DNA of 64,000 nucleotides from Squalus acanthias. Taxonomy: Eukaryota. The stretch spans positions 127,474,001-127,538,000 of the forward strand of contig CM059431.1 in NCBI GenBank assembly GCA_030390025.1, written 5' to 3'. This document shows positions 3,312 through 53,834 of the stretch, in pieces. The notes below the pieces were generated by a model that worked only from the letters and a program-made list of their open reading frames with translations, made no database searches and was not told the DNA's origin. The position numbers and the translations under genes were made by a program. Numbering within the stretch: position 1 is the first letter of the stretch; each line of letters opens with the position of its first letter.

Positions 3312-3313
3312 CG

Positions 3314-10465: not shown

Positions 10466-10752
10466 TAAGGGGGCGATTTTCCCAATGGAGTCGGGTTGGA
10501 GGAGGGTTTTGGTTTGGGTGGGTTCCAAACTCACCTCTACTGAGAGGTGGGAAAAAATTGTGATTTTCCCCTAATTTGCCAGTTGATTTCAGAGGTGTGG
10601 GTTGCCCTTGGCCAATTAGTGTTTTGGGACTGAAACTCGCCTCTGCTGACATCACTTATCCAGCCTCATTTAAGGGCTGCTTGCTGCCTTGGCTCATTCC
10701 ACTGGATTTTTGTCGATGCTGCACCACCTCCAACATTTTTTCAGCTTCTACA

Positions 10753-12650: not shown

Positions 12651-12902
12651 GGGGTAGCCACTTGGGTGAATGTTTATGTGTATTGATGAAATGCCATCCT
12701 TGTTGGAAAGTATAAAAATGATTTGATGGCCAGCTGTTGGCGTGATGGCATCTGTTATTTCGCCTTAGGCAGCTCCACATTGCGGGCTCTGCGACACTTG
12801 CGTGGTCAGGTTGGTGGTCAGAGTGAAAGGAGGCCAGAGAGTCATGTCCATTGTCTATCATGTCTTAAGATGGAGCCAAGGACATGTGCCAACATGGGTA
12901 AC

Positions 12903-14123: not shown

Positions 14124-14681
14124 GCTGCTGGCAGATACCTCCGTTGGGGAAGCGCTCAGTCCAAGCGGGGAGTTGAGAGATAGAAGCTGCAGCACCTCCG
14201 ACTTCGGTAGGCCTGCTAAAAGTGCTGAAAAACCATTTGTACAGAAGTTCTGCCACCTGCAACTGATCCCTGATGAAAGCTCTGTTTTAATGGTGGAGCT
14301 GCAGCTGTGAGGAGGTCACCCACTTGTCAACCTGCCAGGTTTAGCTGGCGTGGTTTAGGAGGGTTGTGGAACACGCTGAAAATGTGGAAAAATAAAGAGG
14401 GCCTGTCAAAATAGGAATATAGAGGCCCTTAACTACTATTTAAGGGTCTTAACTACCTCTCTGGATTGCTGGAGGCGGGACCGAATCGCACCCATCAAAA
14501 CCGCCTCTGGCAAAATTGCGCAGTGGCGGGTTGGAGGCGGGTTCCGAACCTGCACTCAGTTTTTGCTATTTTGCCAACTGTCCCACCTCCAAACCCCCCT
14601 CTTCGGGGCTGGGAAAATCGTCCCCTAAGACTTTTCCTTGATGGAATGGTCATTACATAGCACTTATGTGGTGCCAATGTT

Positions 14682-21733: not shown

Positions 21734-23670
21734 GGCCGCAATTTTGCGCCTGGAGGCGGGATGGTGGTGGGTCCGCTGTTCGGTGGGTTCCGAACCCACT
21801 CCTGGCTCCCGCCGCCCTGCAGTTGAAATTTTCCATTGATTGGCCTCGTTAAGGCCGACGCGCGGGTTCTCCAAGGCAATTGTTGGTGCGGGTCAGCTGC
21901 TCGGTCTGATGAAGCGATGTTGGACTGATTATTTAAAGGGGCCATGTCCCCTCTGCAGATTCATTCCCATTTTGTTCCCTGAAGTGCTGGCTGCTGCAGG
22001 TATGGCAGCGCAAAAACCTAAGGCTGCTCCCCGCTTCGATGAGGACTACCTGCATGCTCTTGTGGAGGGAGTATGAGGACGTAAGGAGGTCCTCTTCCCT
22101 GGAGGCGGAAGGAGGCGGCCTCCTCAGCATACCAAGGCAGCTTGGCTGCAAATTGCTGAGGAGGTCAGCATACGCACCTGGGAGCAGTGTCCAAGAGGTA
22201 TAATGATCTGTAGCATTCAGCAAAAGTGAGTATAGCATCACACTTACCTTCCATCTGCCTCCCATCTCTTCTCATCCCCATCACTCTGCATTGGCAACCT
22301 TCCCCTGCACATCCCAACTCAGTCTAACATCCTATGCACTCTCACCCATCCCTCTCTTCATCTGTACAGAATCACGTCACCATCTTACACCCTTATGCAA
22401 TGCCAACAATTAACAATGCACAGGGAGGGAACTTGGTTTGTGCACATCACTCCTTCATAGTCTCCCTCTAAACATCTATGTCATCCATTCTTTACATTCA
22501 CTCCATCAATCTCTCTCAAACTCCACTTGTGTCCCTCATTACAGGAGAAGAAAGCCCACAATAAAAGGGAGAGGGGGAGGACAGGAGGAGGCCCACCATC
22601 CCTGGCGCACCTAACGAGCGCTGAGGAGGCAGCCCTGGAGATCGTCAGAGGTGCAGAGGAGCTGGAAGTGGGGGACGGAGAGACGGATATAGAACAGCAA
22701 GCTGGTGACAGAATTGATTTCCAACCTTCTGATTTAGCATTCATGAGTGACAAATATGGGAGATGATGTTCATAGAGATTGAGTGCTAAGCATCTGCACA
22801 ATGGGTGCCTTTACTCCCTCACAGGATCATCGAGAGCCCCGCTCCCCATTGTCCAGGAGGAAGAGTAGGAGCATTCCTCAGAAGAACCACCAGCCTCTGA
22901 GGGAGCAACGTCACCAGCATTCAGCGCACACAGCACCAGCGCAGAGACGTACACCTCGGTGGGTAGTTTGCGAGATAGAGTAGTTGTCACCTGGTGAATC
23001 ACAGCTCGCAAGTGAGCAGGAGCAGATGTTGGAGACAGGTACAGCAGTGGAGAGTCCTCGTCGGAGGACGCTGGGCTCTCCCAGCTCTGCTCAGCTGCAT
23101 GTAAACACTGAGCCTCTGGGCCATCCAGAAAGAGAGCGGTGCTGGAGCTTCAGGAACAAGTGCAGGAGGCTCTGAGTGGGTTTGCTTCCATGGTAACTGC
23201 GAGTGTGCAGAGAATGGAGGAGTCCATTTTAAACATTAGCAATGCGGTGGTGAACGCTATGGGTAATCTAGGTGCTGCCATGGAAAGGATGGCAACCTCC
23301 ATGGAGGACCTAGCTCGCCAGACACAAGCCAACATGGTGGCTCTTCTAGATAGATGGGCAGCTATGGAGGATAGAAGGCCATCTATCATGGAGAGGAACC
23401 AGAGGTACATGGACATCCTGGTTATGAGGACTGTCAGGACAGAGATGGGTCCACATGGCCCCACCGATGTGCAGCAAGGTGCTCTCCAGCAACTTGCTAG
23501 CAGTGAAGTGCGGTTGACTGATGAGAGGGACGGTGGTGTTCGAGCACAAGGAAGTGGGGGCACCTCTCCAAGCGCTCACACTCCCTTGCCACTGTCGAGC
23601 ACTCGGTCAGAGCCCCATCTGCCTGAGCCAACAGAGATGGCCGAGTCTGCCCCTGAACAGCCGCAGGTGC
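21734..23670 (+). mobile_element. Harbinger copy 2, truncated; only the Myb/SANT-like gene (from ATG 22002) remains
   Basis: Terminus GGCCGCAATTTT; AAPRFDEDYLHALVEGV, EKKAHNKRERGRTGGGPP, LELQEQVQEAL. Confidence 0.8.
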
Positions 23671-23949
23671 GGGACTTCCTTGTCAACCCCGGTGTCTCCT
23701 TCCTGTACGCGTGGCCTTTCAAACAAAGGACCATGCTGACCACCGGGCAAAGGAGCCCCTACTGACTTCTGCCGTTTTGTGTCTTCACAAACAAAGAACA
23801 CATGCTGACTTCCTACATTTTGAATCCGTCTGTAACCATTTCACAATTCATTCTGAACTTCGATCTGCACACGGTAGCAGGGGTTTTATTACAATTTTTA
23901 GAATCTTACAAATCACAAGGGTTCTCACTTGGGTGTTATGATAGATTTA

Positions 23950-27369: not shown

Positions 27370-27664
27370 GCCTTAATCTAATTTTAAGATTGTGCCCCAT
27401 TATTCTGGATTCCCCCCTTCACCACTGAGGAAACAGCTTCTGGTATCTACCCTATCGAATCCCTTTAAACACCTCCATTAGATCATTCCTAAAACTTTTA
27501 AACTCAAGTGAATACAAGCCAAGTTTATGCAATGTGTCCTTATAATTTAAGCCCCAGCATCATTCTGGTAAATCTGCGCTATACCCCCTCCAATATATCC
27601 TTCCTGAGGTGCGGTGCCCAGAACTGAATTTAGTACTCCAGATCGAGTCTAACCAAGGCTGTGT
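27370..27664 (-). mobile_element. CR1 fragment hosting the provirus; continues at 37133-~37285
   Basis: Joining the flanks restores ...ctaaccaaggctGTGTacaac..., similar to the CR1 at 940-960. Confidence 0.75.
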
Positions 27665-29357
27665 TGTAAGGGATTCTGACCCTGCGTGTCTCGCAGCCTG
27701 TGAGATTCACGCGGCTCTGTGCAGCCTGTATGTCAGTGCGGGTCTAGGCCTTGTTGCCTGTTCTGGTCTCCAGCCAGTCTGGGAACACTAGACACACCTG
27801 TGAGTGGTTCGAATCACTCTCCCTTACGGTTCTAGACACTGGACTTAGATGCGAGAGCAGTAATGGAGATGAAACTCATGTAGACTCGGTTTGAATGGTA
27901 CGAAATGGAAAATCTTTATTGCATGATACTTAAGATTATGAAATACATGTCATAAGCACAGATTAATGACAGTACAATCTTACAAACAGTTATATAGTCG
28001 ATCTTAGGGAAACGAGGAACAAACGGCACAAAGTAAATAGGGGCACACATTACAAATATCCTTAATCCTTAAACCCTCCCCTATCAATATCTATCCTAAA
28101 CTAGATTCGTAGGATTTCGAGACTCATGCTCACCACTCGTGATAACTCGGAGAAATTCCGAATAGCTGATCGGATGTTTTTCACCGCAGCACCCACGTGT
28201 CGGTCAGGAGATCTCCTGGTCCCACTTGTTTACTTGCTTCTGCTGCTCCGGCTAGCAGGCTGGACCGTCTGCTGTGATGAAGACCTGTGTTGGTTGGTTT
28301 AACAGGTACTTTTCGAGCACAGTTGTCAATATCGTCGATACGATATGGCTTTCACATTCCAGTTACTTTGGGCACAGTCCAGTTATCATCGATGCAATAT
28401 GTTTCGTTATAAGTTCGAAGAAGTCTTCCTGGCGAGGAAAACTTGGATAATCGACCTACAGGCGCGGTCGGGATTTACTGACCGTGGCGATGGATATGGT
28501 CTTCCTCTCTTCTCATCTCATCTCATCTCATCTCATCTCATCTCGGGCCTTCGGTTCCGCTGCCAGTTACCAACATAGGTCTTCGTTACGCGACACGAGG
28601 TAGATCCGAACGGATCAGAAAGTTCAACAGTCTTTTCAGAAGAGGCAACAGGCAAGCAGGAGCGAGCCCAACTACGAGTACACAGGAGCAGCCACGAGGT
28701 TACGAAATAAGAGCACAGGATAAGAGAGAGCTGGACGGTTTGGAGCCTGCAATTATAGTGCAAAATCTTCCGTTTCCCGCCCAACTATAATGTCCATTCT
28801 TTTGTTTAGGGTTTGGCGCTCAAATGTCTTGTATGGGTGATCTCCGTTCTTAATGGGTTTCGGGGCTACTCGTAAATGTCTGAGTACCTGTTAATATTTC
28901 TCCCATTGTTAAATCGGTCGGTGTTCTCCCTGGAGGGGTTTGGGGCTTCCAAGTGTCCTGTATAACTACCTGCTAACGGCTCTCTCATCGTAGAGTCGTT
29001 GGGATTTTACATATTAATGTCTTTTGGATGGGCCCTTGATTACTCGGTACAATGGCTTTCCTTTGTACCTGGGAGACCGATTTCAGTATCTATGTGTATA
29101 CTGCAAACCCATAATGTCTCGTGTATTATCTTCACTGTGCTGAATCTTAATCGATCTTGCACAAATGTTTATTGGAACGCCATCTTGTCTGCCTGTTGAA
29201 AAGTCTAGAATGTTCTGTCACGAGGTGCGGCGGCCATTTTACAGGCTGCTTGTGTCCACTTTAAACCTGCCAGCATTCTACTGAAATAAAAGCTGTTTCA
29301 CGAAACTTTGTGTTTTTCTCCTTATTATTAAAATCGCGATATATTGCGAATTCTACA
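27665..29357 (-). repeat. 3' LTR
   Basis: Direct repeat of 35436-37128; sense AATAAA at ~27916-27921; internal (CATCT)n at ~28511-28544. Confidence 0.97.
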
Positions 29358-29369
29358 GTCCCTCCTGTT
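29358..29369 (-). promoter_or_regulatory. Polypurine tract
   Basis: Sense AACAGGAGGGAC abuts the TGTAG start of the 3' LTR. Confidence 0.8.
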
Positions 29370-29807
29370 GATGCGAATAACTCCGCTTATCGTATCAAAA
29401 ATCATAGTGGTGAGCAATATTATCTCGATTTCTCTCCGAATCCAGTAAATTAATCCCATAATTTTAACTTAGCTAGGGTCTCTGTGTCGTCCTCATTTCC
29501 CAAGAAAATTACATTTTATATCACCGTAGGCATTATTTGCCCTTAAACTTACACCACTTGTTTTCCTTCCCGGCGTAACCAGGCCGATGCCTCTCGTATC
29601 ACCTGTATATTCGTCTTTTATTCAGGGAAAGGAAAAAGAAAACCCAAAACCAAACAATCATTTTTAACTATAACACCATCACCAAAATAATCAACACCAA
29701 CTCTTAAAACATGTCGAGTTCCCAACGTATTTACAATCTCTGAAAATCTTATATGAGTACAGGCTTCCGCGGCGCACGTGGCGAGCGGGAGTGACGCCAT
29801 TTTCCGA

Positions 29808-32159
29808 TTACACGGTGCTCTCATCGTGCACGCGCACGTAACGTTCTCGCCACTCTCCCGTGTTTTCATGCTTGGTGAGGCGTTTGTCTCTTTTACAATG
29901 TACAACCAATAGGTACACTACAATGAAAACTTGGCATACGACTAAAATGTGGGAGGCTATTCTGATCCATGAAGGTACTTCAATATTGGTGAACAGATTC
30001 CACCACGGTGGAACTACTATATCCAGAATGTCTGTTCCTATTTCGACAGTTTTCTGCTCTAATGTATAAAAATGTTTCTGTGACACCGCGACGGCTTTCA
30101 AAAGCTTGGTGAGGTGTTCAGGGAGAGGGGGAATGAGGTATCCAAAATGCGCGACGAATCGCTGCAAGTCGGTGAAATTCTCTTTTACTGTGAGATGAAC
30201 AGTGGATGGTTCAGGGATTGGGATAATTCGCTGTTGTGCTACTTGAACTTCCGCCCTGGGTTTAAAACAGAAACTGCTGTCACTCACCGGACACCGGCTA
30301 CGGTTTCCATGCTGGTAGTGTTGCGCTGCAGTGGTAACACAATATGTTCCACCCCGATGTATGCTACCTGCGGAGGCACATGATCTTGTGCCATTGCCTC
30401 CATGGTGCAATTCATGGACTTGGCGCCAGCCGTTCTGAACCCGCACTGTGGTGTTAAAAAAGGCATTCAAGTGCTGGGGGCACAGTATTATGTGTGCTCC
30501 CCTGCCACGACAACCAGAGAGATCTGTACCTGTCATCGTTTGCTCCCAGCGGATGACGTAAGGTGGAACCGCTGCGTAACGAATGTGGGCTCCCCCCTGA
30601 ATGACACCAATGTTCTCTACCCGATACACCGGGGCGGGCTTTGCTGTGTCGCCCAAAACCGGCATGCGTAAAACTATACCCATAATAGTATGGTTTGAAC
30701 GTCCGCAGTCCACGGGGACTGGGTAAGCTTCTGAAGCTAGCCTGAGCTGGCACGGACTTAATGCGTTCTGAAAAGGGTGGAGCGCCCGCAGGTGTTTGTT
30801 ACTTATCCAGGACGGAACCAAACCTTGTTTTAAATCCTCCAAATTACTGCGGCCCTCGCCCAGTAACCACGCCCCGTAAAGCACGCACACCTCGTTCTGC
30901 GCAGCTTGATCGGATGCATTCCGATCTTCCCTAATCAGGGCATTTACCGTTTTTGCATGTTTCTCCAGCTCTGCTATAATTTCCTTTAAATGGAGAGTCA
31001 TGGCTTGGTCCTCGTGTAAACCCGACCCTACCACTTTATTCTCATCTGTTAGAATGTCTTTTAATTGTGTCTTTAAACCATTAATCTGGGTCTGCAGCTC
31101 CACACTGTCTAGAGCGTTGACCACAGATGTACCTGTGTTAAAAGCAGTGAACGCATCGTTCACCAAACCCCTTCTTTGCCTCCCTACTTGATCCAAAACT
31201 TCCTGTGGTGCGGTGTACAAACTTGTTTTATCAATTTCCGCGAAATCGAATTCGTAAAATTGTCTGAACATCTTGGTCAACAGGACCTGATACAACTGTT
31301 CCGTCTTTTTGGGGCACCACTCTGGTAACCGCACCTCAGTGAGATTTAAAATCACCGAGGCCACCGCGTAATGTACCCCCTGAAATAGTATCTGGTCTGT
31401 GGGGACCAGTACCAAACCATTCCCGGGTCCCTTCCTAGTTTTAGGGCACCCTTCTTCCTCAGCTAGAACCACCGGAATCGTGGGCGGGGCTTTGCGTGGG
31501 CGCGTAATGAGCTCAGTGGCATTTACTGGGATCGGGGAGAATGGGGCTCCGCACCCCCTGGTGCTCGCATCCCACCTCATCCCCTGTCCGTTATCCTGCC
31601 ATTGATTAATAAAAAATATGGAGATGCCTTTGGGGCAAACGTACTTTGACCCCCACATACATACATAAATTCCCTCATCCGGTTCCCACCATTTGTCCCA
31701 ACAGACTTTCACTTGTCCGTCTGTCCCCGTAATTGTCCGATGGGTATTATTACCCAGTCGTTCCCACTCGACCGAAGAGTTCCTCATAGTTTTGCTCAGC
31801 TTTCGCAGCCACCACCATCGGCTCAATGGGACCTTCCCACTACAAGTCAAACAAATCCGTTTGCCGACGGTGACGCTGATCCTGGGTGCGATGATCCTTA
31901 CTTTGGGGCACAGTAAAGAAGTCTCTTTGTAGGCAAACCCCGATGTGCTGGAATACTCCGTTGAGTTCGTTCCCAGCCATCCTGGCCACCTTCCCTTGTG
32001 GAAATAGGTGCTGGTCTCCTCTGCCTCCCGTCTTCCGGTCCCATCCACCGCGATGGGGGCCGTGTCCCCGGAACATCCAAACACCACGACATCCTTGGTG
32101 CGGCCTCGATAGGCCAATCCACATCCGATTGCCACGAGCAATACTAGAATTCGTTCCAT
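29808..32159 (-). CDS. env: Envelope glycoprotein (783 aa): signal peptide, Ig-like domain, furin site, class I fusion subunit, TM
   Basis: MERILVLLVAIGCGLA signal; RQRR|GLVNDAFTAF cleavage site and fusion peptide at 31170-31181, then a heptad repeat; DLSGC...CPQ Cys-rich region; TM IASHILVVCQVFIVVYLLVV; several N-x-S/T sites. Confidence 0.88.
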   Translation of the reverse strand: MERILVLLVAIGCGLAYRGRTKDVVVFGCSGDTAPIAVDGTGRREAEETSTYFHKGRWPGWLGTNSTEYSSTSGFAYKETSLLCPKVRIIAPRISVTVGKRICLTCSGKVPLSRWWWLRKLSKTMRNSSVEWERLGNNTHRTITGTDGQVKVCWDKWWEPDEGIYVCMWGSKYVCPKGISIFFINQWQDNGQGMRWDASTRGCGAPFSPIPVNATELITRPRKAPPTIPVVLAEEEGCPKTRKGPGNGLVLVPTDQILFQGVHYAVASVILNLTEVRLPEWCPKKTEQLYQVLLTKMFRQFYEFDFAEIDKTSLYTAPQEVLDQVGRQRRGLVNDAFTAFNTGTSVVNALDSVELQTQINGLKTQLKDILTDENKVVGSGLHEDQAMTLHLKEIIAELEKHAKTVNALIREDRNASDQAAQNEVCVLYGAWLLGEGRSNLEDLKQGLVPSWISNKHLRALHPFQNALSPCQLRLASEAYPVPVDCGRSNHTIMGIVLRMPVLGDTAKPAPVYRVENIGVIQGGAHIRYAAVPPYVIRWEQTMTGTDLSGCRGRGAHIILCPQHLNAFFNTTVRVQNGWRQVHELHHGGNGTRSCASAGSIHRGGTYCVTTAAQHYQHGNRSRCPVSDSSFCFKPRAEVQVAQQRIIPIPEPSTVHLTVKENFTDLQRFVAHFGYLIPPLPEHLTKLLKAVAVSQKHFYTLEQKTVEIGTDILDIVVPPWWNLFTNIEVPSWIRIASHILVVCQVFIVVYLLVVHCKRDKRLTKHENTGEWRERYVRVHDESTV

Positions 32160-32364
32160 CTTTCCTTGGTTCCTGTGATCAGATAGAATGAGGTAGCCAG
32201 CCTCGCAAGAGTCTCTGGCTTTTGTGAAGGGTGAGCGGGTCCCCTGACCTCGCCTCACGTAAACTTCAACGTTCGCTGAATAAACTTCAACTAAACCTAT
32301 CTTTAAAGCTCCCATCATTTTATCGTTTTCTGTTAAAAACACTACAAACTTAACCTTAATAAAG

Positions 32365-32452
32365 CTTAAAACTTAACCTTGAACTATAAACTTAAAACTT
32401 AACCTTGAACTATAAACTTAAAACTTAACCTTGAACTATAAACTTAAAACTT
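32365..32452. repeat. About 3.3 copies of a 26-bp tandem unit between ORF2 and env
   Basis: AAAACTTAACCTTGAACTATAAACTT repeated. Confidence 0.9.
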
Positions 32453-32497
32453 ATTACTACTTACTATACAGTGCCGCCCGTTCTCAGGGCGGCCCCT

Positions 32498-33619
32498 TTA
32501 AATTCTGAGAAGGCTGCTGCGAGCTCTTCCCGACGGTGGGAGGGCACTGACCCTTCCCTCTGATCTGCCGCAGCCTGTTACTGCTGCGATGTGGCCGGTC
32601 TGTATCTGGGTTATCTTAACCTTAAATTTTCGCCTTGGGGCAGTCTGGGGACATGACCACATCCTCCTGGGCTGGGGTTCTCTACTTGACCTACGGGGAG
32701 TTGCTATGGGCGGGGTTTCCGTGACGGACGGACCGGGTTCCGAGACTTCCATCGGGATGACCTGGGGTTCCATCACAGTCGCTGGCTCCGCCTCCGCTGA
32801 CTCCGCCTCCCTAACCTCGGGGCTGGCAGTTCGTGGCTCCGCCCTGCTCGGCCCAGCAGGCGGCCCTTCACTCGTGATCTCTGCCTCCCCCGAGGACTGG
32901 ACGTTCAAAGCGGGCGGCCACATCTCTGGGAGCCACACCGGTACTCTCTGTGCTCCCATAGCGGCTGGCCCTGCCTCCTCTAGCTCCTCCCTCCTGTCTT
33001 CGAGACCTGCAGCTCGTGTGTCCACCCTGTGTGGATCTCTACCTGCAGCCCCCGTCCCCTCCATATCGTAAAAGGGACCGTTCCTCCGAAACCACCCGTC
33101 GTCATCACTATCCTCATCTGCACTATCCTCATCTGACCCGGGTACCCTGAATTCTTCCTCATCTAACCCCCAATTCCAGAAAAACGCTGCATGATCGTCC
33201 GGGATGTCCCTTCCCCTGATGCAAGCTGCTATGCCTGCCTGTGTGCCTTGTGGTCCTACCTGGGGCTGTGCTTTCCCACTGGCGGGATTTACCCCTGTAG
33301 TTTTCCCTTGCGCACCTGGCTTGTACAGTTTGCACTGGTTTGCATCCTCATACTCCCGGCTTTTGGCTACCCTGTAGGCTGCTTTTATCTCTCTAAGCTG
33401 CGCTTCTAGCCTGAGCACGTCTAACTTTCCCATTGATCGGGCGTTCTCCTCCCGCAGGGCCTGCTCTCTAAGCTGCCCTTCCAGCCCATCTATTTTCCCT
33501 ATTAAGCGGGCGTTCTCCTCCCGCAAGGCCTGCTCTTTTAACCTGGCCTCCTCACCGCAGACCCCCTCCTGTGCGTGTCTTTTAAAAGGACACAGGTAGG
33601 CAGGCTGCGTGGGCTCTAG
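32498..33619 (-). CDS. ORF2 in the pol position, in frame after the gag stop; gag-derived coiled coil plus an acidic/Pro-rich region
   Basis: Frame is open from 33619 (LEPTQPAYLCPFKRH...) to the stop at 32498; no enzyme motifs. Confidence 0.75.
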   Translation of the reverse strand, partial: LEPTQPAYLCPFKRHAQEGVCGEEARLKEQALREENARLIGKIDGLEGQLREQALREENARSMGKLDVLRLEAQLREIKAAYRVAKSREYEDANQCKLYKPGAQGKTTGVNPASGKAQPQVGPQGTQAGIAACIRGRDIPDDHAAFFWNWGLDEEEFRVPGSDEDSADEDSDDDGWFRRNGPFYDMEGTGAAGRDPHRVDTRAAGLEDRREELEEAGPAAMGAQRVPVWLPEMWPPALNVQSSGEAEITSEGPPAGPSRAEPRTASPEVREAESAEAEPATVMEPQVIPMEVSEPGPSVTETPPIATPRRSSREPQPRRMWSCPQTAPRRKFKVKITQIQTGHIAAVTGCGRSEGRVSALPPSGRARSSLLRI

Positions 33620-35431
33620 TCATTGGGTACTATTAGACGGTCCTGCGACACCTACGGGGCCGGTTGCGACCGCCACCTGTCCACGCGCATTCAAGACCAG
33701 CTTGCGCATGGCTCCTAACACTGCTTCGAGGTCGTCAGGAGGGGTGGGTGCCTTGGCTTCCTTAGCCGGGACAGGCGCCTGGGCTCGGACCGCGGGATTT
33801 TTATCCTTGGAATCCTTCCAAGGGTTCCTGCAATGCTTGCGCCAGTGCCCTGTCTTCCCACACCCGTAACAAGCATTACTTGCCTGTGGGACGCGATTAC
33901 CCTCCTGATGCCACTCTCTTTGATACGGGGCTGCGGGTCGTACCTCATGTACTCTTCCCTTAAGGGGACGTGTTGCCATACCCCTTATATTGCGATAACC
34001 TAACGTGAGTCGATTCAAGACCGACTCTTCCGTAATGTTGGGGTCATTGGGATCAAACCATGCTTTTGTCTGCTCTCTGACGGCTGGTAAACTGTTGGCT
34101 ATTATGCACCTAAGCCAATGAGTTAAAGCTAAACCTTCCACATCTTCGCGCTCGGGCGCACCTAGACAGCTGCGCTCATATACTGGCCACAGCCTGTCGG
34201 CAAAAACCTTCGGGGGTTCTCCCTCCATCTGCACTGTCTGTCCCACTCTAGCAAACGGACCTTCGTCGTTCGCCCCCAACACTTCCAGGACCTCATTCTT
34301 TAATTCCTCATAACTCTTGGTTCCCCTCTTGCTCTCGCCTGAGAGACACTGAAGGACCGAGCTGTCTAATGAGAACAGCAGCATTTTTGCTGTTTCCCCA
34401 TCATCGCAGCCGTTAATGGCTGCGGCTTGCTCAACTTCTCTGAAATGTACGGAAGGGTCGTCTGCCTCGGTCAGCTTCCGTACGTGATTTATCATAGCTC
34501 TCAGCTGATGTGAACTGTGAGGCAACACCAGCTGTCCGAGGAGATCCCCCGGTTCTTCCCCACCGTTTCTGCTTGGGCCCCTTTTAATACCCGTTACTGG
34601 ATATAACGATCCCTTTCCTACTTCTTTTTCAATGGGCTCTTTTGTTTCTTCCATTGCTTCCTCCCTAACCCAGGTTTCTGAATAGCTGGGTGGCGCGGAG
34701 GGCGCAGTGACTACTACTCCTTCTGCTTTACTTGGTGGGGATTTTCTAAATCTCTCATTTACTAGCGGCTGGTGTGCCGACGGATTGATAAGGCACACCA
34801 TGCCGTTCGCATTGTTCACGGCCTTTTTGAGGTGCTCTATCTCCCTTTGGCAGGCGCTATGATCGGCTCCCTGAAACTTATCCTCAAGGGCCAACTTATA
34901 TGCCGCCCTAACCCCCGTCAAGCTCTCTTCTTGAGTTCTTATCTGGGCAGCTTGGCGGTTACATCTTTCCTTTAACCTGCTCTCATTCAATTTTGCCTCA
35001 GTGACCTGGCACTCGAGATAATCTATCCTTGTTTTAAGGTGACTGGAGACTTCCTGGCTTTCTTGGTGTAACTCATTTAAATTCTTAATGAGCACCTCCC
35101 CTCCAGAAACCTTCTCCTCCATTTCTCCCTCTAAATGACTGATTCGAGCTACTAGCGCTGTAATGGTCTGGTTTGAAATCTGAACCTGCCTTTTGTAACA
35201 CATAAGCCAGACTGCTTTCTCAAGTGTCTTTCTATGTTCTTTACTATCTGTCCACCTTTCAGCTGCCTCTAGTGGGCTCTTATCCGCTAACAATTCACTT
35301 ATCCATTTCTTAGTTAGATTAACCTTTCCAAACACATAATCCGCTATCTTTTCCTGCATAACATTTCGTACAGTCATTCCAAAATCTAACACACTACCCT
35401 CTCGCTGCCAGTGTCCTGCCGCGGTCGCCAT
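33620..35431 (-). CDS. gag: Gag (603 aa) with a coiled coil, capsid-like region and CCHC zinc knuckle
   Basis: CYGCGKTGHWRKHC; QMEGEPPKVFADRL capsid/MHR-like motif; ATG 5 nt after the 5' LTR. Confidence 0.92.
   Translation of the reverse strand: MATAAGHWQREGSVLDFGMTVRNVMQEKIADYVFGKVNLTKKWISELLADKSPLEAAERWTDSKEHRKTLEKAVWLMCYKRQVQISNQTITALVARISHLEGEMEEKVSGGEVLIKNLNELHQESQEVSSHLKTRIDYLECQVTEAKLNESRLKERCNRQAAQIRTQEESLTGVRAAYKLALEDKFQGADHSACQREIEHLKKAVNNANGMVCLINPSAHQPLVNERFRKSPPSKAEGVVVTAPSAPPSYSETWVREEAMEETKEPIEKEVGKGSLYPVTGIKRGPSRNGGEEPGDLLGQLVLPHSSHQLRAMINHVRKLTEADDPSVHFREVEQAAAINGCDDGETAKMLLFSLDSSVLQCLSGESKRGTKSYEELKNEVLEVLGANDEGPFARVGQTVQMEGEPPKVFADRLWPVYERSCLGAPEREDVEGLALTHWLRCIIANSLPAVREQTKAWFDPNDPNITEESVLNRLTLGYRNIRGMATRPLKGRVHEVRPAAPYQREWHQEGNRVPQASNACYGCGKTGHWRKHCRNPWKDSKDKNPAVRAQAPVPAKEAKAPTPPDDLEAVLGAMRKLVLNARGQVAVATGPVGVAGPSNSTQ
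35414..35430 (-). promoter_or_regulatory. Primer-binding site, tRNA-Ser-like, overlapping the gag ATG
   Basis: TGGCGACCGCGGCAGGA 5 nt after the LTR; resembles the complement of tRNA-Ser 3' ends (TGGCG....GGCAGGA). Confidence 0.65.
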
Positions 35432-35435
35432 TTTC

Positions 35436-37128
35436 TGTAAGGGATTCTGACCCTGCGTGTCTCGCAGCCTGTGAGATTCACGCGGCTCTGTGCAGCCTGT
35501 ATGTCAGTGCGGGTCTAGGCCTTGTTGCCTGTTCTGGTCTCCAGCCAGTCTGGGAACACTAGACACACCTGTGAGTGGTTCGAATCGCTCTCCCTTACGG
35601 TTCTAGACACTGGACTTAGATGCGAGAGCAGTAATGGAGATGAAACTCATGTAGACTCGGTTTGAATGGTACGAAATGGAAAATCTTTATTGCATGATAC
35701 TTAAGATTATGAAATACATGTCATAAGCACAGATTAATGACAGTACAATCTTACAAACAGTTATATAGTCGATCTTAGGGAAACGAGGAACAAACGGCAC
35801 AAAGTAAATAGGGGCACACATTACAAATATCCTTAATCCTTAAACCCTCCCCTATCAATATCTATCCTAAACTAGATTCGTAGGATTTCGAGACTCATGC
35901 TCACCACTCGTGATAACTCGGAGAAATTCCGAATAGCTGATCGGATGTTTTTCACCGCAGCACCCACGTGTCGGTCAGGAGATCTCCTGGTCCCACTTGT
36001 TTACTTGCTTCTGCTGCTCCGGCTAGCAGGCTGGACCGTCTGCTGTGATGAAGACCTGTGTTGGTTGGTTTAACAGGTACTTTTCGAGCACAGTTGTCAA
36101 TATCGTCGATACGATATGGCTTTCACATTCCAGTTACTTTGGGCACAGTCCAGTTATCATCGATGCAATATGTTTCGTTATAAGTTCGAAGAAGTCTTCC
36201 TGGCGAGGAAAACTTGGATAATCGACCTACAGGTGCGGTCGGGATTTACTGACCGTGGCGATGGATATGGTCTTCCTCTCTTCTCATCTCATCTCATCTC
36301 ATCTCATCTCATCTCGGGCCTTCGGTTCCGCTGCCAGTTACCAACATAGGTCTTCGTTACGCGACACGAGGTAGATCCGAACGGATCAGAAAGTTCAACA
36401 GTCTTTTCAGAAGAGGCAACAGGCAAGCAGGAGCGAGCCCAACTACGAGTACACAGGAGCAGCCACGAGGTTACGAAATAAGAGCACAGGATAAGAGAGA
36501 GCTGGACGGTTTGGAGCCTGCAATTATAGTGCAAAATCTTCCGTTTCCCGCCCAACTATAATGTCCATTCTTTTGTTTAGGGTTTGGCGCTCAAATGTCT
36601 TGTATGGGTGATCTCCGTTCTTAATGGGTTTCGGGGCTACTCGTAAATGTCTGAGTACCTGTTAATATTTCTCCCATTGTTAAATCGGTCGGTGTTCTCC
36701 CTGGAGGGGTTTGGGGCTTCCAAGTGTCCTGTATAACTACCTGCTAACGGCTCTCTCATCGTAGAGTCGTTGGGATTTTACATATTAATGTCTTTTGGAT
36801 GGGCCCTTGATTACTCGGTACAATGGCTTTCCGTTGTACCTGGGAGACCGATTTCAGTATCTATGTGTATACTGCAAACCCATAATGTCTCGTGTATTAT
36901 CTTCACTGTGCTGAATCTTAATCGATCTTGCACAAATGTTTATTGGAACGCCATCTTGTCTGCCTGTTGAAAAGTCTAGAATGTTCTGTCACGAGGTGCG
37001 GCGGCCATTTTACAGGCTGCTTGTGTCCACTTTAAACCTGCCAGCATTCTACTGAAATAAAAGCTGTTTCACGAAACTTTGTGTTTTTCTCCTTATTATT
37101 AAAATCGCGATATATTGCGAATTCTACA
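35436..37128 (-). repeat. 5' LTR
   Basis: Differs from the 3' LTR at 35587, 36234 and 36833 (by eye). Confidence 0.97.
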
Positions 37129-37284
37129 GTGTACAACTTTTGTAACCCAACCCCCTTGAGATAAATGCCAACATTCCATTAGCCTTTTTGATTACTCTTT
37201 GTACCTCTTCATTAGCTTTTAGCCATTTTTGTACCTGAACACCCAAATCTCTTTGCTCCTCCAGTTTATATTCTCTCGCCATTT

Positions 37285-37750: not shown

Positions 37751-39272
37751 CTAGAAAATAATGGAATAGTGCTATCCATCCCACTAATTAACAGGATGTA
37801 GAATTTTGAGCAGTTTGAAAGGGAATAAAATGGAAGGAGATAGAGAGAAAAAGTTATTTATATTAAAAAATCAAGAATAATCAGAGACATCTCAAGGGAA
37901 ATGCTAGCAAAGCAATTAAAAAATGCTGGAAGGAATAACATTCTTAAGTGTATGAACTTGCAATATTGATGCATTTGAATCAATTTAATTTGTTCTAATT
38001 TACTTTCTGCTTGTGTGCTCCCATTTCTGATCCTCACCCATCAGGAGCTCATATCGGGAAATTGCATACCTTGTAGGGGGTGGTGTGTGGGGTCAGTTTC
38101 ACCTCTGACTCAGTGAGTGGTTTGAATCGCTCCCACGTCCCTGATTCTAGACCTTGGACTTATTTAGGGGTTGTGAACAAAGATGCAGTAGACAGCAGGT
38201 TTTGATGAAAGAATTTTGACTTTATTAACAAGAAAAAGGTAACAAACTTAAAACACACTTAACACTTAAACACAGGTTGGGGAACACGCGGTACAGGCGA
38301 GGGAAATAACATTAGAAGAATACTTCACCCCTCCCAATCCCACTTCACTAGCTAGGTTGGACTCTGGAGAACCAGGGATAATGCTCACCAAACGAATCCT
38401 TGACAGTTTAGAGTTAGGGTTTAGAGTCTTCTGAGTAAAAGGTTTCGTAAGGCCCTTGTTGCCGCGAGGTGTCCGATGGTCACTGAGGCAGTCGCTCTGG
38501 TTTCTTCTTGCGTGTCGGTCTGCTTGTGAAGTTGTTGGCCTTCTTTGTTGAACTTCTTGCTGTAACTCTGCCTCTGTTTAAACTGTCTTCTTCCGAGCTG
38601 TGGAACTGCCTTCTTGCAGAACTGTGGAAACTGCCTTCTGCCTGCTTCTCCTGAACTCTGTAACTCCAGCACTGACTTCTTGCTGAAAACTGGCTTTTCA
38701 ATTTGAACTGCAGAACTGCCTTCTGTTGAACTTGCACCATAACTGTTTGATGGGCCTTCAATTATACTAAATTGAAGTGGCCTTGCCAAAACCAAATCAA
38801 ATCCTGCTCATTGTAAGACCTCGTTAACAGTAACAACTTTACTAAGTGTCAAATGGCTTGCGTCCTGTCGATCTCTTCGGTTGATTACAAGTGATTGGTT
38901 TCGTGTTTTGGGTTTCGAGGCTGGAGTCGGGTTTTTCTATCGAATGGTCCCGAGCGATTTGAATGGTTTTGATGGGTCTGTGATAGGTTTTAATGGGGCC
39001 TGTGTTTTGGGTGGGGCTGCCTTCTCCCAGGGTCTATTGTCCAAATGTTAATGCTTGCTGGGGCTTGAGTGAGGTCATCCCGATTCCCCAGACAATGCAA
39101 TTTAACTGCAATACCCAAAACTGCTATTACAGAGGTCTAAACCATCTCCTGTGCAGCCTTTTCTCCCTTACAGGTCCAGACATGTCTTTTAAAATGCCAA
39201 AACTTGGTCTTTGGTCTTAAATTCCTTATGTTAGGCCCAAATGCATTTTATCACTCTGAGGTAGTTCCAAAG

Positions 39273-40893
39273 TGTAGAGTTTCGCAATTATCGCGATTCA
39301 AAATAACATGAGAGAAGCAGTTTCAATTGATCATTTTTATTAAACAAAATGCTGACGTGGTAATAAAGGACACAGAAGCCTGTAAAATGGCCACCGTGCA
39401 TCGTGGCAGAAGCTTCCAGAGACACAGTGGGCAGACAAGATGGCATCGAATATACATTCAGTATGAGATCGGATGATACTCGGTACACATTGAAAAGGCA
39501 GGATGCAACCCGTTTGCATCCTGAACAATAGCAATGATATAAGTGCTGGAATTGTTTCCTACGCACAGTAAGGATCATTGAACTGGGCCATCGAGAACCC
39601 ATCTAGACACATCAATACACAAATACCCCCCCCGGCTCAACAATGAGAGAGACATTGGCGGGTGATTAAGCCAGTATTCGGGGGGCCCCAAAACCAGTCG
39701 AGGAGACGATTCATACACATCCTGGCTGGCTCAACATAGGAGAAGGTATTAACGGATAGTTGGCCAGTTTCAGGTGTTATCGAAACCCGTTAAGAAGATA
39801 ATCGCCCCATGCTGGGAGTTTTGGGCGCCAAAATCACACAAAGAATAAACGTTTAGATTTGAGCGGGAGATAAGGCCGACAAAACAGTATAACTATAGAG
39901 GACAAATGTCCATCGGTCTCTTGACTCTTGACTCTTGGCTCTGGACTCTTGACTCTCTTCCTGAAGCTCTTCCTGGACTCTTCCTTGACCCTTGGCTCTT
40001 GACTCTTAGCCGTGCTGGTCGATTATTCGAGTGTTGGGTGGAGCTCAATCGGAACGAGCCGCCTCGACAGGGCAAGTAACAGGGTACATCATCCCGAGTG
40101 TCGGTAAACGATGTCCGGACCCGGAGCCCCGAGTGACGAGAAGAAAGATGAGAAGAAAGACGAGAAGAAATTCCACGTGCCGTCACGGTCAGTAAACCCC
40201 GACTGCGCCCGAAGATATAATGACAGAATCCATCTTTGAATTCTACAGACTACGACATGAACCGTTTTCTTTGAATTCTACGGATTACTGCACGATCCGG
40301 TCTGAATCCATCGACCACTTCATGACATCAGGGAATCTGGCTTACCTTTCGCGGGAGCGAGAGTAAACAAGTGGGGTGCAGAAACCCTTACAAACACGTG
40401 ACAGTCAGGCGCTGCAGCAAAACGAGCTGAGTGCCTCACTTTAAATTTCCGAAGTGAGCCGAGTGGTGAGCATGTTTTCCGATCCTACAAATCCAGACGT
40501 AGTTTAGGTATATTAAGGGAGGGTGGTTTTTCTAAGGTTAATGTATAATGTGTTCCCCCTTTTACGATGTGTCGTGTGTTCCCCATTTCCATAGGCCAAG
40601 TTTTATGAACGTGTGTATACTTGTAGTCTCTTTGATCTGCGCCTATGACATGTATTTCATGATTTTAGACGCCATGCAATAAAGATATTCAGTTTGTGCT
40701 ATTCAACCGGGTCTATTTGAGTCTTTCTCTACATTACTGCTCCTTGCATCTAAGTCCAGGTGTCAGAACCGTAAGGGCGAGTGGGTCGAACCACTCACAG
40801 GTGCTTATTGCAAAAGTCTGGGCTGGAGACCAGAGCAAGCAATAGTATAGGCAACGAAGGCCTCACCTCGCACCAGTACCGTGACCCCTTACA
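39273..40893 (+). mobile_element. Solo LTR related to the provirus LTR, inserted in opposite orientation within the second element's LTR
   Basis: Begins TGTAGAGTTTCGCAATTATCGCGAT and ends CCCTTACA, like the sense provirus LTR; flanks AAAG / GAAG; AATAAA at ~40679. Confidence 0.85.
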
Positions 40894-41489: not shown

Positions 41490-42437
41490 CTAAACCCTGT
41501 TCGGGCTCTGCCTTTTGCTGCTTCTGGGCAGCCGGTAAGGTGGCCTGTACCGCAGGATCCTGAGAGTCCTTCTTCTACAGCATACTGACCCCTTTGGTGT
41601 GGCTGCTTCTGAGTCCCTGTCCTGTCCTGTGGGTTCCTCGCAGCCTGAGACCGTAGGCTGGGGACCCTTCTTGTGTTCTTGGCTCACAGCTGCCTCTGTG
41701 AAACCCTCTCTGCAGGAGGCTGTAGGCTGGAGATCCCTGTCCTCAGACTGATCCCTGACCTTGGGTGTTTCTTTACGGGTTACAACCCTCTTTGGGTGGG
41801 ACCCTTTAAACTGATACACTGGAGACCAGGGTGGTTTAGGCTGTGGTGTGCGGGGAGACCTTCTTAGGACTCTGGCCACTGGGGGAGTGCCTGAGTCCCA
41901 CATAATCGATGGAGTATACCCTTCTGTGATACAAGCCCCTGTCCTCACCGCTGCAGTCTGTGAGTCTGCCACAGCTGCTGGCTGGGGATTTCTATCCTCA
42001 GGCTGTACCTCTTCTAAACCTGTCTCGGGGGCAGGTAACTCTCTGCAGCCTAATGCTGTTGCTCTTGCTGCAGGCTGAGGATTTCTATCCTGTTTTAGTT
42101 TGGGCAACTCTGCTACCATGGCTTGCAACTGCGGGGTGGTGAATTCCCCCGGGGTTGTTAAGCAAACCATCCCTCTGGCTTTGGATAGGGCTTGGGTCAG
42201 ACCTTTTATCCTTTCCTCACAGGGCCCATGGTTTAAATACTAATACCCCCTGCTCCTGGCTACCCTGTAGGCTGCCTTTATGTCTCTAAGCTGCCCCTCT
42301 AACCCGTCTACTTTACCCGTTAAGCAGGCGTTCTCCTCCCGTAAGGCCTGCTCATTTAAACTGGCCTCCTTACGGGAGGTCTTTTCCTGTGCGTGTCTTT
42401 CAAGGGGACACAGGTAGACAGGCTGCGCTGGTTCTAG
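41490..42437 (-). pseudogene. ORF2 homologue of element 2, one premature TAG at 42240-42242
   Basis: LEPAQPVYLCPLERHAQ...EQALREENA...IKAAYRVA...GMVCL, in frame after TGA-CTAG. Confidence 0.8.
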
Positions 42438-42715
42438 TCATAGGTCTGGGTTGTATTGGGCAGATGGGGTCAGAGCACCGGTGGTTGCTGCTACCTTCCC
42501 TGGGCCAGTCAATAGGGTCTTCATGGCGTCCAAAAATGACTTGACCGTGGCGGGAGGGATCCCTGTCTCTGCCTTTTGGGCTGGGGTTGAGGAATTCTTA
42601 CCCTTGTTATCTTTCCAAGGATTCTTAAACTCCTTCCTCCAGTGTCCATCCTTCTCACACCCATAACAGTTAAGCTTTGTGCTGGAAGGGTTATTCCCTT
42701 CCTGATGCCACGTAA
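42438..42715 (-). pseudogene. gag: gag C-terminal remnant of element 2
   Basis: WHQEGN...CYGCEKDGHWRKEFKNPWKD aligns with the first element's gag. Confidence 0.85.
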
Positions 42716-46790: not shown

Positions 46791-49700
46791 GGAGGCGGAT
46801 CAGCTGCTAAAATCGGAAAAAATGGCTTCAGAGAAACAACCCGCCTCCATCCCGCCCCACGCGATTTTCGTGAGTGTCTGTTCAGCTGCTCCCAAACTGA
46901 CCCGACTCCAACCGGAGGGACAGGTAGTTAAGGCAGTTAAGAGCCTGTTAACTCTCTTGATAATTCTATTTTAACAGAGGTTTCCCATTTTCGTGCCTCT
47001 GGCTCCTGTTTCCCGTCTTGTCAGAAACACGCCAGCTTCAAGGAGGCGAGTTGGTGGAGGACATAATCTGTAGTCATTATTGGTGCAGAACTTTAAAAGC
47101 GCTCCTGTAACATGGCTGGCATTCAAATGCAACAACTTTGTTGCTGGAGGTTTGGGATAAGATTTTGCAAATCTACTGACCTTGTGACTGGTCAAGCTGA
47201 CACACATCTGCTGTTTGAACTGATTGGGAATAATTTCAGGCCACTTTGAGTGTGCGCTTGCAAGCTTCTTGCCTCAACTGAAATCTATAACAACGGGATG
47301 GGAACCGTTTACATCCTCTCATCCTGGTCATCAGATTCGGAGGAAGAGCAGCGCGGCTTAGTGCTGCCGGATGAACAAGTGACTCAGCACACAGCCTCCT
47401 TGGAGGAAGATGAAGAGGACGAGGAAGAGGATGAGGAGGAGGACGTGGAGTGACGCCTTGCGGGGCCGGATGTGGCCAACCCAGCAGCAGGCGACCACAT
47501 TGCTGGTTGTCAGGCAAGGGATGCACTCATCCATGCCAGTTTCACATGAGCTTACACTTCAAACACAGGGGTGGCTGGCAGATGGAGATGAAAATAAGGT
47601 CAAGATTCTTCACACACCATACATCATCTGTCCAATAAATGGTGCTTTATGATCACTGTCACCGCCATCATTATAAATGGAATTAGCCCTGAGCCCTCAC
47701 TGTGCAACTTCCATTTCCCAAAACACATAGACCAGAACCTCAACTGCTTGCCATCACTTTTCTTTAATGACATCACAAAAGGAGGACACTCGATAATTTA
47801 CAGCACAATAACACACCCATGTGACTACCCTTGTGACTATTTATGTGTTAACTTCCTCTTACGCGTGCTTCTACGTGGTGCTTCCCCTGGGGCTTCAGCA
47901 GATGTAGAGGCACCTTGCTCACTTTGACGCTGCGCCTGCCTAGACGCCTTTGGCGGGCGTCCTCTGGGTTTGGGAGCCTGGGAGGGCTCCTCCACAGTCT
48001 GCTCTTCCTGCGGCTGTGCAGGGGCTGAGACGGCCATTTCAGTTTGGTGTGGAATCTGGGGCTCTGACCGAGGGCTCCGCAGTGGCATGGGAGTGTGAGC
48101 GCTTGGAGAGCAGCCCACACTTGCTTGTTGCCTGCCACCAACATCCCTCGCATGGGTCAGCCGCACTTCAATGCTAGCAAGTGGCTGGAGAGCACCTTGC
48201 TGCACGTCAGGAGGACCATGAGTATCGTCTCTGTACTGGCAGTCCTCATAAGAAGGACGTCCATGAAGCTCTAATGTCTCTCCTCAATAGATGCCCAACT
48301 CTCCTCCATTGCAGACAATCTATTTTGAAGAGTAACCATGTTTTCGTTAGTCTGGCGACTTATGACTTCCATGGCAGTTGCCACCCTCTTCATGGCGGAA
48401 TGGTCATGCGACATTGCCTCCACAAAGGCAGTGCTCATGTCAGAGATTGTCTCCTCCATTCTCTTCATACTCGCAGTTACCCTGGATGCAAACCCTGTCA
48501 GAGACTCCTGCACTTGTTCCTGGAGTTCCAGCACCGCTCTCTTTCTGGATGGCCCCAGAGGCACAGCGTCCACATGCAGCTGAGCAGAGCTAGGAGCGCC
48601 CTGCGACCTCTGACGAGGACTCTACACTGCTGTCGCTGATGCTCACTTGTGAACTGTGATACACCAGGTGACAACACTACTCTATCTCGCGAAGGCCCCG
48701 CCAAGGTGTGCATTGCTGCGCTGGTGCTGGGTGCGCTGGTGCTGGTGACGCTGCTCCCTCAGCGGCTGTAGGTTCCTCTGAGGAGTTGTCCAGCTCTTCC
48801 ACCTGGACAGTGGGGAGGGGGACTCTCGATGGTCCTGTGGGAGAGTAAAGGCATGAGTTAGACATCTGATTTTTAGGTAGCAGACACATCCTATTGTGCA
48901 GATGATCAGAAGTCAATCTCTATGAGCATCATATGCCATTGCAGTCAATCATGAATTGTAATTGCGAGGGATGAAAATGCATTCTGTCACCGGCTTCCTC
49001 AACTGCACCCATCTCTCCGCCCCCCACTTCCAGCTCCTCGCCACCTCCCACGATGTCGTGAGCAGCCTCCTCAGCGTTTGTTAGTGTGGCCAGGGATGGT
49101 GTGCTTCCTCCTGTCTTTGATCTCTCCCTCTTATTGTGGAATATCTTTACCTGCATGGAGGGACACAAGTGGAGTTTCAGCGAGAGTGATGGAGTGAGTG
49201 TGAAGAATCCAAAACCTAGAAGCTTAGAGGGAGACGAAGATGGAGTGAGGTGGCAAGAGGAAGCTGCCTCCCTGTGCGTTGTTAGTTGTTGTCATTGCAT
49301 AACAGTGAGAACAAGTTTGAGGGGTGCATAGTAGAATAGTGAAGTGATTCAGTACAGAGAGAGAGATAGAGAGGTAAGGGTGCAAGGGAAGTAAGGGTAA
49401 GGTGGGATTTGGAGGAGCAGGCTGACAATGCAGAGTGCTGGTGATGAGAAGAGTAGGGAAGCAGTTTGAAGGTAAGTGTGATGTGATACTCACTTTTGAT
49501 GTTCGCACAAGATCATTGAAGCGTTTTCTGCACTGTACCCAGGTGCATGTACATAGCGACCTTACGCTTACAACCTCAGCAATCTGCAGCCAGGCTGCCT
49601 TTGTCTGATGAGGAGGCTTCCTCCGGCCATCGGCAGGGAACAGAATCTCCCTGCGTCCTCTTACTCCCTGCACAAGAGCTTGCAGGGACTCCTCAGTGAA

Positions 49701-50004
49701 TTGGGGAGCAGCCTTGGATTTTGCAGCACTCATGGTCACCTTGGCCCATTCAAGAAGCAGCAGTGAAGAGAAATGAGAGGCTGAGGCTACATGGAGGCCT
49801 TAAAAACAAGTGCAGCAATGACCTCATCAGTGCAGACCAACAGACCCGCTCCCAGGCAATTCAGCAGGCAGTGCGCACGATGGAACTAATTGATCCCATT
49901 AAGCAAAAACGGGACACAGGGAGCGGCAGAAACCGGCAGCGGGTCCAAAACCCGCCCACCAGGAAGCCCGCCCTCAACCCGCCTCCATGTGTAAAATCGG
50001 GGCC
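46546..50004. mobile_element. Harbinger copy 3; transposase core deleted, Myb/SANT-like gene at 47837-49733 (-)
   Basis: Termini GGGCTTGATTTTA / TAAAATCGGGGCC; AAPQFTEESLQALVQGV...QCRKRFNDL; transposase stub at 47298-47550. Confidence 0.85.
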
Positions 50005-51640: not shown

Positions 51641-52627
51641 AGAGCTTTATAAATTAGGGCCCCTTGTCCTAGAAATGACTTAGAAAAACTCGTACTGAGA
51701 GTGGGATTCAGGAAAAGTAATCCATTTATGAAGCTGGTTTATTTTCAGAGGCAGAAAAATGGAAATAGGTTAGATTTTTCTTTTATCAAATTAAGGGAAT
51801 GTCACTTGAAACGAATAAGATTTAACAGACCTATTGATGCTGCATAACTATGTTGAATCTCCAGATGTATTGTACTCTACTGCAATCATAAAAACTAAAA
51901 AGATATTTGTTCTCAAATAGTTGGATCCAAACCAAGAGATAATAGAGTAAAATAATGCATATTTTTCAAAAACTAATGTACACGTAAAAAAATTAGCATT
52001 TTGAACATTGTAACACTGTCTCTTTTTCCAGACTATAATTAAAATGCAATCAGACAAAAATAAGATAGAAAAAATTATAATGGCCGGAATTTACCGGCTG
52101 CTATGCGTGCGGGATTGGAGGCGGGTCAGGAGTGAAAATTCAAATAAATCGGAGCGGGAACCGGCTATCATCCTGCCTCCTCACGCCTTTTACTCGGGCC
52201 TTTGCCTTGGGACTCGGCAGCGACCCGAACGGCAGAAGTGGCCGACCTAATTTAGATCATTATTAGGTTGTTGTCAGACCCTTAAGCGTCCATTTAACCC
52301 TACCTTTGAAATTTCACTGCATGACCACGGGAATCACGCAGCTCAGGATCCAAGTCTGCAAACCTGAGGCGGAAGTTCAGTGGCCATTGATGGAACTCAT
52401 TACTGCAGAGCATGGAAAGCACAATAAATACTCCCACCTGACACCGGGTTACTTTCCTAAGGCAGATGCTGTTGCTGAGTGCATTGTCAGCACAGATTTA
52501 GCTTTCTAGAGGTTGGAAGTGTTTTCAGCAAATTTGGGAACTGCTGTCACCTCATTGCTATAACCTATCACACCATTGACAGATTACTTCTCTCATCTCT
52601 ACTTGACCTGCCATCTATTACATCAGC

Positions 52628-53540: not shown

Positions 53541-53834
53541 CTTCAGACAGTACACCCATATGGCTGCCATGTGTTGCGCCAAGTTCCCCCCATGCCACAG
53601 CAACACCATAAAGCACCCCTACAATGACCAAGCCATTCCTTTCACACTGACCACCATTGCTGGAGTTAACGTTATGTCACACCATTCACTCCAACTCACT
53701 AAGCCACTTCCAAATTTACAGACAAAATTGGCCATAACCCGCAAGTGGTGAAAATAGTTTAATCTGTGATGTAAGAGTAACGGAAGCTTAACACAAACAG
53801 TTATTAAAACAACCAAGTGCTTACCCTTGTGCAT

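Follow-up and report, generated by a model that had tools for sequence, protein, structure and literature searches.

The snakehead retrovirus (SnRV), reportedly described by Hart et al. in 1996, is said to have an Arg-tRNA primer site and a long Gag coil. SnRV-like endogenous retroviruses (ERVs) are known from the elephant shark, where they were named CmiERV lineage I (PMC4422223). Among recombinant ERVs, recKoRV joins koala retrovirus and PhER, with the middle of a young ERV swapped for a piece of another ERV (PMC6112702), and among non-autonomous fish ERVs, Bhikhari (Bik-1 and Bik-2) of zebrafish was recently active (PMC12067270). UGACUA is the type II readthrough hexamer (PMC13517186), and in reporters readthrough shields RNAs from NMD, with longer conditional ORFs needing more readthrough (PMC5360307). 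Here we describe an ERV in a 64,000-nt stretch of Squalus acanthias DNA (the window), in which gag and env are open, the enzymes are gone and a chimeric frame, ORF2, follows the gag stop.

Element 1 is a 9.5-kb LTR retroelement on the minus strand (27665-37128), flanked by a 4-nt target duplication, GTGT (27661-27664 and 37129-37132). The 5' LTR (35436..37128, minus; 1693 nt, TG...CA) carries a TATA-like box at 35767 and AATAAA at 35691, and the 3' LTR lies at 27665..29357 (minus). The two LTRs differ at 3 of 1693 sites (0.18%), and element 1 is a young ERV; at the shark rate assumed in PMC4422223, itself uncertain, the pair is about 4 million years old. The gene order is gag, ORF2 in frame directly behind the gag stop, and an env-like gene. 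The primer-binding site (35413..35430, minus) complements the 3' end of a tRNA-Arg(TCG)-like gene, for which a pattern of anticodon, T-loop and primer-site complement gave one genome match, and a version with longer spacing two, with none in the controls of either search; ARAGORN found no tRNA in the 64,000 nt of the window. The primer-binding site and the start codon of gag overlap (35413-35431), so that the site also encodes the first Gag residues; related Gags begin with similar residues.

The gag gene (33620..35431, minus) encodes 603 amino acids with a long N-terminal coil, a capsid and one CCHC knuckle. Its structural model was of low confidence overall (pLDDT 49), with a helix at residues 64-183 that was better predicted at 91-180 (pLDDT 67-79); the best fold matches of its capsid helices were retroviral capsids, at E 0.07 and weaker. 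The named relatives of Gag come from skates and sharks, apart from a distant Xenopus protein. The coil and an HxxC motif were recognisable in catshark, horn shark, whale shark and Xenopus proteins (P0016, P0018, P0021, P0026 and P0029). The env-like gene (29808..32159, minus) has an RQRR cleavage-like site, heptads and a transmembrane stretch. It matched no family and no PDB entry, Pfam gave no match to Mononegavirales F (PF00523) at E up to 1, and the predicted model was unusable (pLDDT 30). A weak Ig_3 match (E 0.5) was seen in the Env surface part (window 29808-32372), and a 13/26-nt tandem repeat of variable length among copies lies between ORF2 and env (32362-32453).

Other repeats were also found in the window. 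Two near-identical inverted copies of an element with RT and a GIY-YIG-like domain, 98-99% complementary, lie at 1493-4901 and are presumably Penelope-type. Decayed copies of a two-gene transposon with DDE and Myb-like ORFs, which we take to be Harbinger-like, lie at about 10600-14300, 22200-23800, 47800-49800, 52300-55800 and 61400-64000.

Copies of element 1 were selected by gag, as the first 20 chromosome-level loci of the best 73 gag matches, one per tandem array and at least 99% identical. Eight of the 20 continue from gag into protease-RT, and 12 into ORF2, which is open to its normal end in 11 of the 12; the other has a private frameshift. Among copies selected by ORF2, a biased set, 103 of 110 lack an internal stop. 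The pol-bearing relatives encode protease, RT, tether, RNase H and an integrase with an SH3 domain (Pfam). Element 1 shares gag (99% identical), the Pol tail and the env start with this helper family. Its LTRs, primer site and target duplication are intact, its enzymes are gone, a pol-bearing relative exists and the family has been amplified; by these features, element 1 is a non-autonomous satellite that would depend on a helper. Exact junction 24-mers numbered 803 of satellite type and 276 of helper type, both possibly inflated by unplaced contigs and the latter including some recombinant satellites. At the junction, three copies (L037, L049 and L056) combine bases of the helper and satellite types, as expected from co-packaging. 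Copies of the family often stand in tandem about 7.7 kb apart (C6, C11, C23, C264 and others), the spacing expected with a shared LTR.

ORF2 (33619-32498, minus; 373 codons) was read in the preliminary description, made from the letters of the window, as a chimera of a pol stub, a gag piece and a pol tail, and comparison with real helper sequences bore this out. By alignment, it consists of three parts joined in frame at short microhomologies. Specifically, codons 1-23 (33551..33619, minus; about 70 nt) are a degenerate pol start, having a 10-nt word in common with the pol of family A, where it is read in another frame; a guessed donor-pol pattern for this stub gave no genome matches. The stub joins the coil at GGAGG. 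Codons 24-93 (33341..33550, minus) are a Gag coil cassette resembling that of a gag family termed D, inside which 23 codons are duplicated from 33466 (minus) on; the EQALREENAR repeat pointed out earlier is thus real, with a period of 23 codons. From codon 94 onward (32498..33340, minus), ORF2 is a helper Pol C-terminal tail whose first residues belong to the last strand of the integrase SH3 domain; a 6-nt microhomology marks the join, and the tail runs to the pol stop. Contigs from four sequencing runs cover all 30 bins and those in X1 and X4 span the cassette, so the arrangement is not an assembly artefact.

The Pol tail is 92-93% identical in DNA to two helper pieces, gaps included, and differs from the helper by 4 synonymous and 15 nonsynonymous changes over 280 codons. 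The pol start and this tail are the only helper pol regions to which ORF2 could be mapped, and ORF2 gave no Pfam enzyme match to PR, RT, RNase H or integrase. The folded integrase portion is absent, the tail lying beyond nearly all of the SH3 domain. An RRS-R-PQP motif had been likened to integrase tails; in the form RRSxRxPQ, it lies in the Pol tail of ORF2 (about 32695, minus) and in that of all eight pol-bearing loci checked.

The coil had been taken for a diverged duplicate of the element's own gag coil. Its likeness to Gag is significant and survives correction for coiled-coil composition: the score of element 1 ORF2 against its own Gag (69) was reached by 0 of 500 plain and 1 of 3000 heptad-preserving shuffles, and the scores of ORF2 of element 2, a second element in the window, against Gag (119 and 116) by 0 of 500 and 0 of 3000. 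The own gag is nevertheless excluded as the source by DNA score, identity and trees. At the DNA level, the element 1 coil scores 29 against its own gag, with a shuffle mean of 30, which is no similarity; with LTRs differing at so few sites, this makes a recent self-duplication impossible. The ORF2 coils share 28-33% of residues with the window Gag coil, 47-51% with Gags of family A and of the L032 type, and 76% (75 columns) with the Gag of family D. The family A and L032-type gags were the best donor candidates until family D was found, and were then dropped. L059 and L060, which also matched the cassette in long frames, proved to be satellite copies whose gag stop has turned into a sense codon; in L059, Gag and ORF2 are read as a single frame.

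Family D was found with a pattern placing the cassette start behind normal Gag context, which gave 170 matches and none in controls. The single family D copy that was read (L061) matches the cassette at 159 of 215 nt and the first block of element 1 at 63 of 81, and CQVTEA, the normal Gag context, stands upstream of its coil. In the tree, family D is sister to all ORF2 coils (support 97/91). A clade of ORF2 coils with the window Gag was rejected in four trees in total, with p-AU 1e-33 when family D was included and p 0.0003-0.003 before it was added; in a first, smaller tree without families A and D, a grouping of ORF2 with the full set of six Gags of the element 1 type remained acceptable (p 0.10). 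Rows left out were L031 (broken coil), duplicate loci and L022 (no anchor match), and from two later coil trees also the near-copies L018, L020, L025, L029 and L035. In the ORF2 of element 1 itself, the aligned block is missing its second half, and the link to the other coils is by pairwise comparison only. No homologues of the cassette were found among 81 candidates.

These comparisons place the coil as a real Gag coil from a third gag family, neither the element's own nor the helper's. The earlier question of whether it is closer to the Gag of a helper than to its own is answered by neither, the own and helper gags being nearly identical. Descent from the element's own gag, for which the significant protein similarity speaks, is scarcely credible given the DNA result, the much higher identity to family D than to its own Gag (about 30%), the rejected clade and the normal Gag context of the family D coil. 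Family D and the cassette differ mostly at silent sites (ratio 0.27-0.33, which cannot be assigned to the ORF2 branch), suggesting that the true donor is a relative of family D outside the sequences read.

The coil cassette is monophyletic (support 98/91 to 100/100), and stub and coil together appear, by alignment, as one unit common to three satellite families with different gags and tails. The first is the family of element 1, with a helper C tail and env; the second is paired with helper B and has env (L016, L024 and L026); the third, that of element 2, has a different gag and tail and no env. Element 2 (41490..42710, minus) consists of a gag 3' remnant and an ORF2 broken by an in-frame stop after codon 65; its gag stop is UGA-CUAG (42438-42440, minus), as in element 1. 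Its ORF2 has a longer cassette, comprising coil, an HxxC...MVC helix and a capsid-helix-1-like piece, and a different Pol tail; the short capsid-helix-1 match is visible by eye. The 3' LTR of element 2 (38071-40893) is split by a solo LTR of family-B type in opposite orientation (39272-40893). In the family of element 1, two different joins have each removed the conserved HxxC...MVC part; the heptad part was retained in all cassette families and duplicated in the family of element 1 and in L026.

Coil-less satellites also exist (L030, L032, L033 and L035), with ORF2 still open to the tail motif. In these and in L019, ORF2 consists of a protease N-half with DTG, an RNase H end and a tail; L035 and L020 have two tails each, both with RRSxRxPQ. 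In every satellite family, translation in frame past the gag stop would arrive at this motif. In 40 locus rows, duplicates included, it was reached stop-free in 30, through one stop in 4 and not at all in 6, two of which were pieces read too short. Since the tail served to find the element-2 and coil-less loci, some of which were also picked for long frames, their open frames are a biased sample. In the gag-selected families, at least five family-level joins are in frame (stub-coil, B-type coil-tail, and two coil-tail joins and one duplication in the family of element 1), with a chance of about 0.004 if they are independent at 1 in 3 each. Between families, the cassette has accumulated 20-25 substitutions in 56 codons with no stop or frameshift.

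The gag stop of element 1 stands in a UGA-CUAG context (33616..33622, minus), in frame with ORF2. TGA-CTAG was found in all 20 gag-selected copies. Across 19 distinct junctions, TGA-CTA occurred 13 times and TGA-CTG 6 times, and four further loci gave no pattern match. A type II site is defined by UGACUA or UGACGG with an in-frame ORF; element 1 carries the former hexamer and such an ORF, with CUG instead at 6 of the 19 junctions. Readthrough is therefore the likely way in which both Pol and ORF2 would be expressed. In both element 1 and helper C, a hairpin was predicted over about +8 to +66 relative to the stop (+11 to +64 in element 1), with pair probabilities near 0.99 and differing 3' arms. 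Its z-scores were only -1.7 to -2.2 (element 1: -2.1), and 8 of 78 element tiles scored as low; no hairpin was found in families A and B or in the family of element 2. As a conserved readthrough element it did not stand out beyond the tile controls, and duplex tests were significant in few loci only; the predicted hairpin is a suggestive lead. Stub variants (L028, L024, L026, L060 and window 33619-33551) show a stepwise strengthening of the hairpin from -15.5 to -29.1 kcal/mol, the strongest near the -26 to -29 kcal/mol of the helper, which may reflect selection or conversion by the helper.

The coil is without clear purifying selection at the few sites available. Between families, dN/dS of the cassette was 0.5-1.1 and never significant, including 0.52 (p 0.12) for the coils of element 1 and the element 2 family; controls gave 0.29-0.42 for gag, 0.18-0.20 for pol and 0.02 for the integrase end. 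Within the family of element 1 (19 copies against the window), the coil had 2 synonymous and 5 nonsynonymous shared differences (pN/pS 0.98) and 1 and 2 private ones, and within-family controls were 0.33/0.57 for gag and 0.26/0.28 for env, both in 7 copies, and 0/0.27 for helper pol. The coil tests rest on 10-25 differences, with 20 of the 73 gag matches read, and are compatible with moderate constraint. For the Pol tail the signal was mixed: 0.60 (p 0.08) and 0.28 (p 0.0008) within the family, 1.4 against helper C and 0.8-1.0 between helpers. Tail indels of 12 and 39 nt also occur in helper Pol tails, and hence were not counted as independent evidence of frame keeping. The possibility raised earlier, that ORF2 evolves neutrally with frequent frameshifts, thus applies in part: the residues are near-neutral, but only one of the 12 gag-selected copies is frameshifted. 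An open frame seems more important than the coil as such.

ORF2 is probably, if far from assuredly, a recombination patch retained as an open readthrough frame in a helper-dependent satellite, with the coil mostly an in-frame filler. Template switching between co-packaged RNAs would have replaced pol with a foreign gag piece, the cassette arising once and then passing between helper lineages by the same route. A few percent of ribosomes would pass UGA-CUAG to make Gag-ORF2, which, carrying its own Gag part, could enter particles with no need of the coil. The satellite would make its own Gag and Env and receive enzymes in trans from helper Gag-Pol. Selection would keep translation unbroken from the gag stop to the natural pol stop, the gain being protection of unspliced RNA from NMD and possibly retention of the tail motif; the NMD gain may be small, with about 3 kb of untranslated env and LTR following the ORF2 stop. 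The spread of the cassette over three families, which is easier to explain if the cassette helps, counts against a filler. It would fit better if Gag-ORF2 were an accessory protein whose coil dimerises and presents the Pol tail with RRSxRxPQ, its partner being itself, Gag or helper Gag-Pol, so that the satellite captures helper enzymes or competes with the helper, and the cassette spread because it is useful. We consider this possible but doubtful. One monophyletic cassette behind different gags, LTRs and tails, a heptad part that is kept throughout and twice duplicated, a motif present in every pol-bearing locus checked and reached in frame in all satellite families, a tail pN/pS below 1 within the family and an element 1 coil dN/dS of 0.52-0.72 against other families (not significant) are all in keeping with it. 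In other viral proteins, nucleosomes are bound through arginine anchors (PMC9040877), and RRSxRxPQ as such an anchor would be a guess by analogy. Against a working coil stand the absence of significant purifying selection, the double loss of the HxxC...MVC part, the coil-less satellites and a donor coil only about 30% identical to the helper Gag coil.

The related proposal of the preliminary description, that the coil co-assembles with helper Gag or Gag-Pol or interferes with it, found no positive support: the coil shows no detectable purifying selection, has been cut short in two ways and duplicated once, and is missing from other pol-less families. A complex prediction of the own Gag coil with the ORF2 coil scored 0.00 and was counted neither way. 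Alternatively, ORF2 might be under no selection, founder recombinants having been in frame by chance and the families too young to decay. The small LTR divergence, several comparisons in which dN/dS of coil and tail came close to 1 and the indels also seen in helper tails would suit such drift. We regard it as quite unlikely in view of the five or more independent in-frame joins in gag-selected families, with more in coil-less ones, and of the cassette substitutions between families that left no stop or frameshift. It is unlikely, too, that stub and coil form a portable satellite-making module whose readthrough product is a dummy Gag-Pol capturing helper enzymes or crowding out the helper; if true, this would explain why satellites outnumber helpers about three to one.

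This genome holds several pairs of helper and satellite; pol disappeared by different routes among them, and each time the frame behind the readthrough-type stop stayed open, in hundreds of young copies. They form part of a large radiation of probably snakehead-like ERVs, active until recently, in a cartilaginous fish. They also make a question testable from sequence alone, namely whether a retroelement that can do without its own Pol still depends on ribosomes crossing its gag stop, be it to stabilise the RNA or to make the Pol tail. Should the coil act as a protein, it would be an adaptor of a parasite of a parasite, without precedent in the literature found.

The lineage of element 1 is likely SnRV-like. 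The two SnRV features named at the outset are matched here by the tRNA-Arg primer site and the large predicted Gag coiled coil, and a 47-residue block of the helper RT matches SnRV at 36 positions and Loki-Sri at 24 (by eye, in the alignments of the PMC7947760 supplement). The helper pol, with a tether plus RNase H (dual RNase H) and PR-RT-RH-IN order, is of a kind common to all retroviruses. Membership in the lokiretroviruses was rejected, the helper having an LPQGF-type motif and the listed Loki RTs CPFGY/LPFGY (PMC7947760); the GFHNSP motif was not found in the part of that supplement examined. The locus differs from the SnRV clade in its massive recent amplification and in the gag stop, which is UAGGGC in SnRV (PMC13517186) and UGA-CUA/CUG here. 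The portions of PMC4422223, PMC4977317 and PMC12193657 that were available do not mention pol-less satellites of this clade, and no description of the cassette was found in the literature searched; repeat libraries, most subscription journals and most supplements lay outside that search, and prior cataloguing is possible.

The stop context of the locus is that of type II (UGA-CUA) readthrough, as known from alphaviruses and from mammalian genes (PMC13517186). A stem starting about 8-11 nt after the stop, as at such sites, is predicted in element 1 and its helper but is missing in some families, and readthrough in the shark element is likewise a prediction. Like Bhikhari, element 1 is a recently active non-autonomous fish ERV with an intact Gag and an N-terminal coiled coil; unlike it, element 1 has env and a readthrough ORF2, whereas Bhikhari is lokiretrovirus-related with a single gag ORF (PMC12067270). 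As in recKoRV, the middle of a young ERV was swapped for a piece of another, with microhomologies at the breakpoints, and the product was re-mobilised to high copy number. Unlike in recKoRV, gag and env are open here, only the enzymes are replaced and the insert is gag-derived (PMC6112702); moreover, a readthrough-type stop precedes it in the same frame, and three helper backgrounds share a single cassette. Defective recombinant ERVs are known, and the new part is a portable gag cassette, in frame and placed for readthrough, in an element whose gag and env stay open.
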